Source: Candidatus Moraniibacteriota bacterium (GTDB taxonomy: Bacteria; Patescibacteriota; Minisyncoccia; Moranbacterales; UBA2206). Taken from it: a stretch of 64,000 nt of DNA. Positions 48,195 through 50,124 of this stretch are shown here, piece after piece. Positions within the stretch are counted from its first letter, which is position 1, and each line of letters starts with the position of its first letter. The position numbers and the translations under genes were made by a program. The notes under the pieces are model-generated. The model ran no database searches. It worked only from the letters and a program-made list of their open reading frames with translations, and had not been told where the DNA came from. The DNA is taken from positions 1,267 to 65,266 of the forward strand of contig JAPLXG010000013.1 of NCBI GenBank assembly GCA_026396175.1, in the 5' to 3' direction.

Positions 48195-50124
48195 GAAAGG
48201 AGGTGATCCATCCACAGCTTCCGCTACGGATGCCTTGTTACGACTTCACCCTTATCATCGATCCTACCGTGGTCCCTGCTTTGAAACAGGGCCTTCGGGT
48301 ATTACCGACTCTCTTGGTGTGACGGGCGGTGAGTACAAGATCCGAGAACGTATTCACCGTGACATAGCTGATTCACGATTACTAGTGATTCCAACTTCAT
48401 GAGGTCGAGTTGCAGACCTCAATCCGAACTGAGAACAGCTTTTTGGGATTGGCTCCACCTTGCGGTTTGGCTACCCTTTGTACTGTCCATTGTAGCACGT
48501 GTGTTGCCCAGGGCGTCAAAGGGCCATGCTGATTTGACGTCATCCCCACCCTCCTCCCAGAACTTTGTTCGCAAGCGAACAAAGTAAATTTCAAGATACA
48601 AGATACAAATTCCAAAAAAATTTTAAATTCCAATTATCCAAATTACAAACTTTTTAAATTGTGTTTGAGATTTGAATTTTGGTAATTGTGATTTGTTTGG
48701 TTATTGTTTCTTGGTTATTGGTCATTACTTTGCGCCTGTGCGCAAAGTTCTGGGCAGTCTCGCGTGACATATATAACACGCGATAGGGGTTGCGCTCGTT
48801 TCCTGACTTAACAGAACATCTTACGACACGAGCTGACGACAACCATGCAGCACCTGCTTAGCACCCTCGAAGGCTTAACTATTTCTAGTTAATGCAGCTA
48901 AGTTTCAAGCCCTGGTAAGGTTCCTCGCTTACCGTCGAATTAAACCACATGCTCCACCACTTGTGCGGATCCCCGTCTATTCCTTTGAGTTTTAAGCTTG
49001 CGCTCGTACTTCCCAGGCGGCATACTTAACGCGTTAGCTACGACACTGGAAGGGTCGATTCTCCCAATACCTAGTATGCATCGTTTAGGGCGTGGACTAC
49101 TGGGGTATCTAATCCCATTCGCTACCCACGCTTTCGTGTCTCAGCGTCAGATGAGGGCCAACCAAATGCCTTCGCCTTTGGTGTTCCATATGATATCAAC
49201 GCATTTCACTGCTACACCATATGTTCCATTGATCTCTCCCTATCTCTAGATATACCGTTTCAAATGCAGTTTTCGAGTTGAGCTCGAAGATTTGACATCT
49301 GACTAATATATCCGCCTACACACGCTTTACGCCCAATAAATCCGGATAACGCTTGAGGTCTCTGTATTACCGCTACTGCTGGCACAGAGTTAGTAACCTC
49401 TTATTCGTAAGGTACCGTCAAATCGTGCCTCGCTATCGCGCGGCACAAAATTTCTAATTTCTAATTTCTAATTTCTAAACAAATCCTAATGACTAAATTT
49501 CTAAATTTGAAAATTAAATCATTGAGAATTGTTTGAAAATTGAAAATTGAAAATTGAAAATTCTGTGCTGAACGTTAGTGAAGCACGGTTTCTTCCCTTA
49601 CAAAAGCAGTTTACGACCCAAGGGCCTTCTTCCTGCACGCGGCGTCGCTCCATCAGACTTTCGTCCATTGTGGAATATTCTCGACTGCAGCCACCCGTAG
49701 GTGTTTGGACAGTGTCTCAGTTCCAATGTTGGGGGTCACGCTCTCACGCCCCCTACCCGTCATAGCCTTGGTAGTCCATTACACTACCAACTAGCTGATA
49801 GGACACAGGCCACTCCAAAAGCGATAAATCTTTACTCCGTAGAGCACATCATGTATTATTCCGGATTTCTCCGGATTATTCATGACTTTTGGGAATGTTC
49901 CTATGTATTACTAACCCGTTTGCCATGTGTGTTTCGCTCCGCTCATCACACAAACACCAAAAGAACTAATAAGCCACCAAATTTAACTAATGAATGTTTC
50001 GTTAATTTAGTTCTATATTCGTTAATTTCGTGTCTATGTGTGTTGAACAAAGTGAAACACACATTCGACTTGCATGCCTTATCCACGCCGCCAGCGTTCA
50101 TCCTGAGCCAGGATCAAACTCTCA
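48195..50124 (-). rRNA. rrs: 16S ribosomal RNA, about 1.93 kb, with three insertions (V1 expansion, palindromic element in V3, AT-rich insertion in the helix-40 region)
   Basis: The minus strand reads AGAGTTTGATCCTGGCTCAG at the 5' end and GGATCACCTCCTTTCT at the 3' end. The 515 (GTGCCAGCAGC, seen as its reverse complement gctactgctggcac), 785 and 1392 universal blocks are present. About 400 nt more than a typical 16S. No 23S follows. Confidence 0.9.
49441..49562. repeat. Palindromic (AATTTCT)n...(AGAAATT)n element, copy 2, inserted in the 16S V3 hairpin
   Basis: Near-identical to 9240..9368. Flanked by the host helix gcgcGGCACA / TGTGCTGaacg. Confidence 0.8.

Follow-up and report, generated by a model that had tools for sequence, protein, structure and literature searches.

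We analysed 64,000 nt of contig JAPLXG010000013.1 from Candidatus Moraniibacteriota bacterium (assembly GCA_026396175.1; this whole stretch is hereafter the window), in which a palindromic element with arms of tandem 7-nt units (heptads) occurs twice. One copy occupies the spacer between nusB and rnc, the gene for RNase III, and the other lies inside the 16S rRNA gene as part of an insert in helix 17 (h17). The features concerned are the following.

9242-9363, minus strand: heptad-armed palindromic element, copy A, in the nusB-rnc spacer (family-profile match 9243-9362, E 3e-22)
49449-49562, minus strand: heptad-armed palindromic element, copy B, within the 16S gene (family-profile match 49450-49562, E 4e-22)
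49421-49589, minus strand: whole 169-nt insert replacing the tip of h17 (alignment to the insert-free allele L142; E. coli numbering)
48196-50129, minus strand: 16S rRNA gene with three hairpin inserts, 1934 nt long where the model has 1533 nt (full-length match to Rfam RF00177, 1377.6 bits)
8541-9233, minus strand: rnc (RNase III), 230 aa, 92% identical to PF00636/PF14622/PF00035 proteins named ribonuclease III by their source
9375-9959, minus strand: nusB open reading frame (ORF), orthologous to PF01029 genes in L121-L124; nucleotide alignment

The two copies are a homologous pair, as the original prediction held for 9240-9368 and 49441-49562, with limits now refined to 9242-9363 and 49449-49562. 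They align with one 8-nt indel, at 85% identity over 122 nt by BLAST (E 3e-35) and at 93% identity in a global alignment with gaps excluded; they have a non-repetitive core in common (AATGACTAAATTTCTAAATT) and are oriented alike with respect to the transcripts that carry them. Copy A is intergenic and adjoins the RNase III gene, as first described, and it fills the spacer, lying 11 nt from the nusB stop codon and 8 nt from the GTG start of rnc. The arms had been read as AATTTCT/AGAAATT repeats, which does not hold: on the plus strand they run (AATTTCT)4...(GAAAATT)4, and on the minus strand, which has the sense of the RNA, (AAUUUUC)4...(AGAAAUU)4, with the core between them. The two heptads are imperfect complements, and in RNA of either strand each would pair through five Watson-Crick pairs and one G.U pair, with one C.A mismatch. 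Both copies are predicted to fold into a long AT-rich hairpin, in line with the initial description, copy A at -39.5 kcal/mol (z -5.8 against shuffled controls) and the h17 region with its flanks at -70.2 kcal/mol (z -9.8), the latter continuous with the host helix. The element measures about 115-122 bp, contains no ORF of 50 aa or more, and combines inverted heptad-array arms with complementary subterminal motifs, that is, the small size, lack of coding sequence and inverted repeats of a MITE, or miniature inverted-repeat transposable element. Heptad arrays far exceed chance expectation in the window (5 matches where 0.26 were expected, and 7 where 0.84 were expected), and the family profile, run over all 64 kb, finds just copies A and B and nothing more at E<1.

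Alignment to the small-subunit rRNA covariance model places copy B inside the bacterial 16S gene at model position 457/458, after E. coli position ~452, in h17 (V3 region). The original prediction of an insertion in the loop of a helix at E. coli ~455-475 had the right helix and the wrong kind of change, since the allele is a 169-nt replacement of the tip rather than a clean loop insertion. Copy B makes up the distal ~115-120 nt of this insert and stands on a GC-richer base of 27 + 28 nt, which consists of two GUGC...GCAC mini-hairpin segments; the insert alone is predicted to form one irregular 67-bp hairpin (-62 kcal/mol). We scanned metagenomes with a 24-mer specific to the lineage and located immediately 3′ of h17, and obtained 18 related 16S genes; all 18 lack the insert and have a 5-6-nt loop at the site, which bears out the view of the 16S copy as a lineage-specific insertion. 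In two of these relatives (L139 and L142) the 16S core is 99.6-100% identical to that of the window, yet h17 carries only the short loop (GGGAAGA-AUGUAA-UGACGG); the site is filled in the window and empty in both. Because these near-identical relatives have the short loop only, the GGCACA/TGTGCT helix, at first taken for a preserved host helix, is part of the 169-nt insert. The flanking protein genes of L139 and L142 are only 75-86% identical to the window at the nucleotide level, an unusually wide gap between rRNA and genome divergence that hints at rRNA gene exchange or extreme constraint.

Pairwise alignment with a relative shows that two other helix tips of the same 16S gene, in helix 6 (h6) and helix 40 (h40), are replaced as well.

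49925-50064, minus strand: 140-nt hairpin replacing h6 (V1), with 11-bp perfect terminal inverted repeats AUGUGUGUUUC/GAAACACACAU
48567-48742, minus strand: 176-nt hairpin insert in h40, with mini-hairpins CUUUGCGCACAGGCGCAAAG and CUUUGUUCGCUUGCGAACAAAG on its flanks

The replaced tips correspond to E. coli ~68-96 (h6, 140 nt), the point after 452 (h17, 169 nt) and the point after ~1171 (h40, 176 nt). Each insert is predicted to fold into a single irregular hairpin of 52-67 bp, and of the three only that of h17 holds sequence repeated elsewhere in the window. The h6 insert has a homologue at the same site in the relative L129, and the h40 insert has homologues at the same site in L131, L069 and L144, the last of which has a heptad-family hairpin as its central part. 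Separately, the relative L142 has a ~450-nt 16S insertion (~590-1043 of its locus) near E. coli ~1400 and the start of helix 44. The window has none there, and at the same point the inserts of L128, L129, L131 and L132 are larger; these probably correspond to the intron-type insertions described at position 1400 in the candidate phyla radiation (CPR; PMC11270868).

Copies A and B belong to a dispersed repeat family. We scanned a genome collection with the seed (AATTTCT)3 and obtained at least 120 loci; the family figures given from here on are among the matches listed. Simple heptad microsatellites, in Bacteroidota, Sulfurovum and others, account for most of these matches, and the heptad by itself is therefore not diagnostic of the family. 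BLAST and profile searches recovered at least 20 full-length arm-core-arm elements in 15 loci, with profile E-values down to 1e-24. About a dozen of the 15 full-length loci carry CPR labels, against 38/120 loci, and the labels of family loci include Moranbacteria, Falkowbacteria, Paceibacterota, Daviesbacteria, Nealsonbacteria and Saccharibacteria. Members are ~105-135 bp long, AT-rich and non-coding, with arms of 3 to 9 heptads; family-wide, they combine the imperfect pairing of AATTTCT with GAAAATT and complementary subterminal motifs (AAACAAT/ATTGTTT and CAATG/CATTG), which are conserved as ...CTAAACAAT... and ...ATTGTTTGA.... There are two copies in the window and 2-3 per locus in L034, L062, L083 and L091; the pair first noticed is part of a larger set. 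The resemblance of copies A and B is not a chance low-complexity similarity, the outcome against which the original prediction had been hedged, because the palindrome recurs as a multi-copy family in other genomes, in rRNA helices and in intergenic spacers. No Rfam family matches the element at E<=10, and we found no published account of a repeat family that connects the rRNA inserts of CPR bacteria with copies between genes. With arms that hardly vary and a core that aligns poorly, the family alignment carries little information on covariation, a double change being seen at 1/20 consensus pairs. A hairpin classifier based on minimum free energy proved unspecific, flagging 21 non-CPR loci and missing known members, and the profile search was used in its place. 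Phages were also considered as vectors and set aside, as no full-length member was found in viral contigs, which gave only arrays and weak partial matches.

Family members occur at the tips of several rRNA helices. The 23S gene of L062 (Falkowbacteria) has one copy after E. coli 1168, in helix 45, and another at its 5′ leader; the 23S gene of L044 (Berkelbacteria) has a member at 2130; and the member in the 16S gene of L144 lies, as noted, in h40. A single 23S gene in one metagenome-assembled genome (MAG), L083, carries three inserts of ~190 nt whose central 155 nt are 100% identical.

L083, 2560-2800: 23S insert at E. coli ~274-286
L083, 4255-4495: 23S insert at E. coli 1709 (helix H63)
L083, 4845-5085: 23S insert at E. 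coli 2130 (helix H78)

The rRNA-borne versions are built alike, as mini-hairpin, long AT-rich hairpin, mini-hairpin. Their two mini-hairpins are near-direct repeats, which means that the whole insert can also form one continuous helix. Between the L083 inserts the mini-hairpins on the flanks vary through paired (compensatory) substitutions, one example being CTTGTGC-ATA-GCACAAG versus CTTGTCC-GCA-GGACAAG. Among the helices concerned, h6, h17, H63 and H78 are reported as reduced in CPR ribosomes (PMC9297842).

Other members fill, nearly to the base and in either orientation, the gaps between co-directional genes.

Spacer sites of family members: atpD|atpC, leuS|, |fusA, frr|rseP, rplK|rplA, rplX|rplE, rplF|rplR, |tgt, uppS|trx, pilO|pilB

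Translation genes adjoin 7/13 of the sites outside rRNA and away from rnc (rough binomial p ~0.007 against an assumed background of 20%), an adjacency that is suggestive on this rough assumption. None of the 120 listed loci has an rnc gene beside it.

We compared the nusB-rnc spacer of the window with that of ten further lineages. Some form of hairpin is present in 9/11 of the sampled genomes, in three forms. A family member is found in five lineages, in one orientation in the window, L121/122 and L123/124 and in the opposite orientation in L150 and L237. In the closest relatives (90-92% RNase III identity) the spacer contains a diverged orthologue of copy A, oriented as in the window and with GC-rich palindromes lying inside it, and the opposite-orientation members belong to two basal lineages with 77-79% RNase III identity. 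In three intermediate lineages (L125, L149 and L236) the spacer holds a conserved hairpin that is shorter, retains heptad-like remnants and shows compensatory changes, and L151 and L238 have no hairpin, their spacers measuring 28 nt or 0 nt. Across ~274 kb of the relatives' loci, outside this spacer and besides the 16S h40 inserts, there was only one clear match, in an rnhA|RND spacer of L124, and one weak partial match in L238. The recurrence at nusB-rnc could mean one old insertion that was kept and once inverted, or repeated insertion; under either history a duplex upstream of rnc looks to have been maintained. A search of 9150-9450 against Rfam at E<=10 for homology to the rncO RNA family of E. 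coli gave only noise.

The wider setting of the two copies includes a candidate processing site for the 16S precursor, an inverted repeat with arms 88% complementary, found by a repeat search.

47937-47962, minus strand: downstream 26-nt arm of an inverted repeat bracketing the 16S gene
50391-50416, minus strand: upstream 26-nt arm of the same inverted repeat

The arms are separated from the 16S gene by ~235 nt on its downstream side and ~260 nt on its upstream side, and probably form its pre-16S processing stem, a classical RNase III site, a function we infer from their placement. Rfam detects no 23S or 5S rRNA gene in the 64-kb window, which extends 48 kb downstream and 14 kb upstream of the 16S gene, and the rRNA genes are thus unlinked. 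The best protein relatives of rnc include several from Moranbacteria/Moraniibacteriota MAGs, which assigns the organism to the Moranbacteria group of the CPR (Patescibacteria); an exact match to its RNase III protein is not on record. The longest nusB ORF encodes 194 aa and runs through a GC-rich palindrome at 9922-9943, and NusB of relatives has 151-166 aa; judged by these lengths, the true start is probably an internal Met near ~9878, which would place the palindrome in the rpmF-nusB spacer.

That palindrome is a single unit, like another at 47850-47873, of a second, GC-rich repeat family, which forms mosaics of short palindromes at 12512-12767, 16140-16397, 21703-21904 and 56073-56355. These palindromes, such as CCCTGCCTACCGGCAGGCAGG and CTCTCCCGGAGGGAGAG, fill spacers between co-directional genes in the manner of REP/BIME clusters. 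The same palindrome is nested within the heptad element of L121, and at 4312-4382 of L066, a Patescibacteria MAG, a perfect (AATTTCT)3/(AGAAATT)3 palindrome surrounds the GC palindrome CCGCCAGCTGGCGG; at window ~48150-48165, a short way downstream of the 16S gene, the near-identical CCGCCAGTTGGCGG is present as an insertion that L142 lacks. Elsewhere in the window we noted two long-arm tRNAs at 42426-42625 and, beside the 16S gene, a 21-nt (7-codon) tandem repeat at 50935-51144 inside a 172-aa ORF (50791-51309, minus strand) that encodes a repetitive VDxLTxR-type protein with no Pfam match on record.

On balance, and with limited confidence, we favour the view that the heptad hairpin is a non-autonomous palindromic (foldback, MITE-like) element that is tolerated at rRNA helix tips and probably serves as an RNase III substrate. 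Its starting points are observations: the insertion polymorphism at h17, the membership of both copies in one family, the multiple copies, the classes of location that they occupy and their predicted folding. The family, which is dispersed mainly through CPR/Patescibacteria genomes, would spread by copying without creating a target duplication, and copies would persist where a transcribed hairpin is harmless, at exposed rRNA helix tips and in short co-directional spacers. Both window copies would be transcribed in the same sense as duplexes of ~45-67 bp, mostly A-U, which RNase III may cleave, by analogy with intervening sequences (IVSs) of bacterial rRNA and with the rnc leader of E. coli. 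One such cut would remove the h17 insert from pre-16S rRNA in the manner of an IVS, and another, in the nusB-rnc transcript, would couple the stability of rnc mRNA to RNase III activity. These parts differ in strength. Copy-and-paste mobility, judged by the distribution of the family, is probable; excision of the insert from 16S by RNase III, argued by analogy, is to us an even call; and feedback on rnc through the leader hairpin, also an analogy, is a tentative suggestion.

Several observations weigh against this interpretation. The h17 tip is replaced and 55 nt of the insert lie outside the repeat, so a single clean insertion event fails to describe the allele. Direct copying between A and B is not demonstrated, since the window copies are 91-93% identical over aligned positions to copies from distant genomes, as close as they are to each other (93%). 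Target-site duplications, the expected trace of a MITE, were sought at 14 junction pairs, where no consistent duplication and no consistent target sequence appeared; no transposase or other mobilising enzyme was identified, the window proteins not having been systematically screened for one. The case for mobility accordingly comes from distribution only, and the MITE comparison of the original prediction stands for the small, non-coding element with inverted arms and lacks support as to target duplication and a partner transposase. The recurrence in the nusB-rnc spacer could reflect one ancient insertion, vertically inherited and later inverted. Finally, RNA of the sense strand is the more stable in 15 of 24 family members and that of the antisense strand in 9 (p 0.31), no significant bias, so that selection at the RNA level is not demonstrated.

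Excision of the IVS type is plausible for the h17 insert, as it fits the sporadic distribution, the long hairpin, the member in 23S helix 45, the presence of rnc and the putative pre-16S processing stem. Short non-intron inserts in CPR rRNA have been treated as possible RNase III IVSs (PMC11270868), and CPR rRNA insertions for which there are transcript data are reported to be excised from the RNA (Brown et al. 2015, as cited in PMC11270868 and PMC9297842). The alternative that survives best, though we regard it as rather unlikely, leaves the family and its insertion history unchanged and has the hairpin stay in mature 16S rRNA as a retained expansion segment, a neutral or mildly structural surface extension of the truncated h17. 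The insert is predicted to stack on h17 as a continuous helix; h6, h17 and h40 all lie at the periphery, and the first two are shortened in CPR (PMC9297842). A C.A mismatch every 7 bp may also make the duplex a poorer RNase III substrate. However, a bacterial ribosome with three duplexes of ~50-67 bp on a single small subunit would be out of the ordinary, and both the reported removal of CPR insertions and the family member at helix 45, a canonical RNase III IVS site in 23S rRNA, argue for excision.

Another alternative puts function first. The hairpin would be a regulatory RNase III operator of the rnc leader, ancestral to the Moranbacteria clade, and the hairpins in rRNA and spacers would be kept, or copied by ectopic conversion, as good RNase III sites rather than as selfish DNA. 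Such a history would suit the presence of some hairpin in 9/11 nusB-rnc spacers, the compensatory changes of the short form among L125, L149 and L236, the translation genes beside 7/13 spacer sites, and the closeness of distant-genome copies to one consensus. It accords poorly with the absence of an rnc gene beside any of the 120 listed heptad-pattern loci and with copies at atpD|atpC, pilO|pilB and uppS|trx; moreover, the three identical copies in the 23S gene of L083 look recently duplicated rather than independently selected, and fold stability has no significant strand bias. We consider this account improbable.

Convergence is already disfavoured, and we judge it very unlikely. Here heptad replication slippage and template-switch 'quasipalindrome correction' would generate low-complexity hairpins with no common descent or movement, and simple (AATTTCT)n arrays, as well as palindromes of perfect (AATTTCT)n/(AGAAATT)n form, do occur in many unrelated bacteria and in viruses. 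The range of arm lengths, 3 to 9 heptads, and the mini-hairpins flanking rRNA inserts, which are perfect palindromes with paired changes between copies, agree with such a process. Two features common to the family do not, namely its subterminal and core motifs, which are non-repetitive, and the particular imperfect pairing of AATTTCT with GAAAATT; nor do full-length profile E-values down to 1e-24 or the identity of the three L083 copies over 155 nt of repetitive and non-repetitive sequence alike. An assembly artefact, in which an intergenic repeat was chimerically joined into the 16S contig, is hardly credible: the h17 insert is seen in this one assembly, with no independent confirmation, and two Logan contigs of the same organism (1.9-3.5 kb), where alone the neighbouring GH1 gene has an exact match, end ~30 nt into the 16S gene, but the insert sits exactly at a helix tip on its own GC-rich base that lengthens the helix, the h6 and h40 inserts of the same gene have same-site homologues in independent assemblies, and the same architecture recurs in the independently assembled rRNA genes of L062, L083, L044 and L144.

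A bolder extension of the mobile RNase III substrate that we favour, and one we hold to be doubtful, would make the heptad hairpin a portable RNase III recognition module. The same double-stranded RNA cassette would be placed in rRNA tips, in the spacers of operons for ribosomal proteins, EF-G, RRF and aminoacyl-tRNA synthetases, and in the rnc leader. The amount of RNase III would then depend on competition with its rRNA and mRNA targets, and a single enzyme would process the parts of the CPR translation apparatus together. The cassette would spread by hairpin-templated copying (template-switch or foldback), which would create no target duplication and would regenerate the flanking mini-hairpins.

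Several known systems resemble parts of this picture. Bacterial MITE-like and palindromic repeats include the Correia elements of Neisseria, ERIC, RUP, the Rickettsia palindromic elements and REP/BIME (reviewed in PMC3184786). The heptad element is like them in being 100-150 bp long, non-coding and multi-copy, with inverted arms and a place in transcribed spacers. It differs in having no TA or other target duplication, in arms built of 7-nt units rather than unique terminal inverted repeats, and in a family that spans phylum-level divergence. Correia transcripts are RNase III substrates, and Rickettsia palindromic elements insert into genes, RNA genes included; we know of no cognate insertion sequence for the heptad family. 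Among organelles, selfish palindromic repeats populate the mitochondrial and plastid DNA of Volvox carteri (PMC2670323). There too, AT-rich hairpins have spread through intergenic DNA and into rRNA-coding modules, whereas the heptad family resides in free bacterial genomes and its sequences are unrelated. The double-hairpin elements of Allomyces are another organelle example.

IVSs excised from rRNA by RNase III are found in 23S helix 25/45 of Salmonella, Campylobacter, Leptospira and Coxiella (PMC4990558, PMC2672173). The h17 insert resembles them as an extra hairpin at a helix tip, an AT-rich extended stem-loop that is sporadic among close relatives, in a family with a helix-45 member and a genome with rnc. 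Unlike them, it belongs to a sequence family also present in mRNA spacers and in several rRNA helices, and its arms are tandem heptads; its excision is putative. Rare 16S IVSs occur in Helicobacter and Caedibacter, and to our knowledge h17 is not a described IVS site.

A further comparison is with the short, non-intron, ORF-less rRNA insertions of CPR bacteria (Brown et al. 2015; Tsurumaki et al. 2024, PMC11270868), of which the h17 insert, at <200 bp and with no intron model or ORF, is an instance. About half of the 16S genes of CPR bacteria, and four fifths of their 23S genes, contain insertions, and the short intron-less, ORF-less ones have stayed uncharacterised, with no shared repeat family or non-rRNA copies reported (PMC11270868). 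Our results show some of these short insertions, at least, to be members of a dispersed palindromic family that is also found in operon spacers, across CPR lineages, and this membership gives them an origin and a testable fate. Amplicon surveys and rRNA-based binning of these organisms use the V1, V3 and h40 regions, which such inserts lengthen and disrupt. As for the other window copy, E. coli RNase III cleaves the 5′ untranslated region of its own transcript at rncO. Copy A likewise puts a long duplex directly upstream of rnc, within one transcript; it differs in having no sequence or Rfam similarity to rncO and in being one member of a repeat family in common with rRNA, and its part in feedback is putative. 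The recurrent copy in the rnc leader is a concrete, testable candidate for RNase III feedback in not-yet-cultured bacteria.

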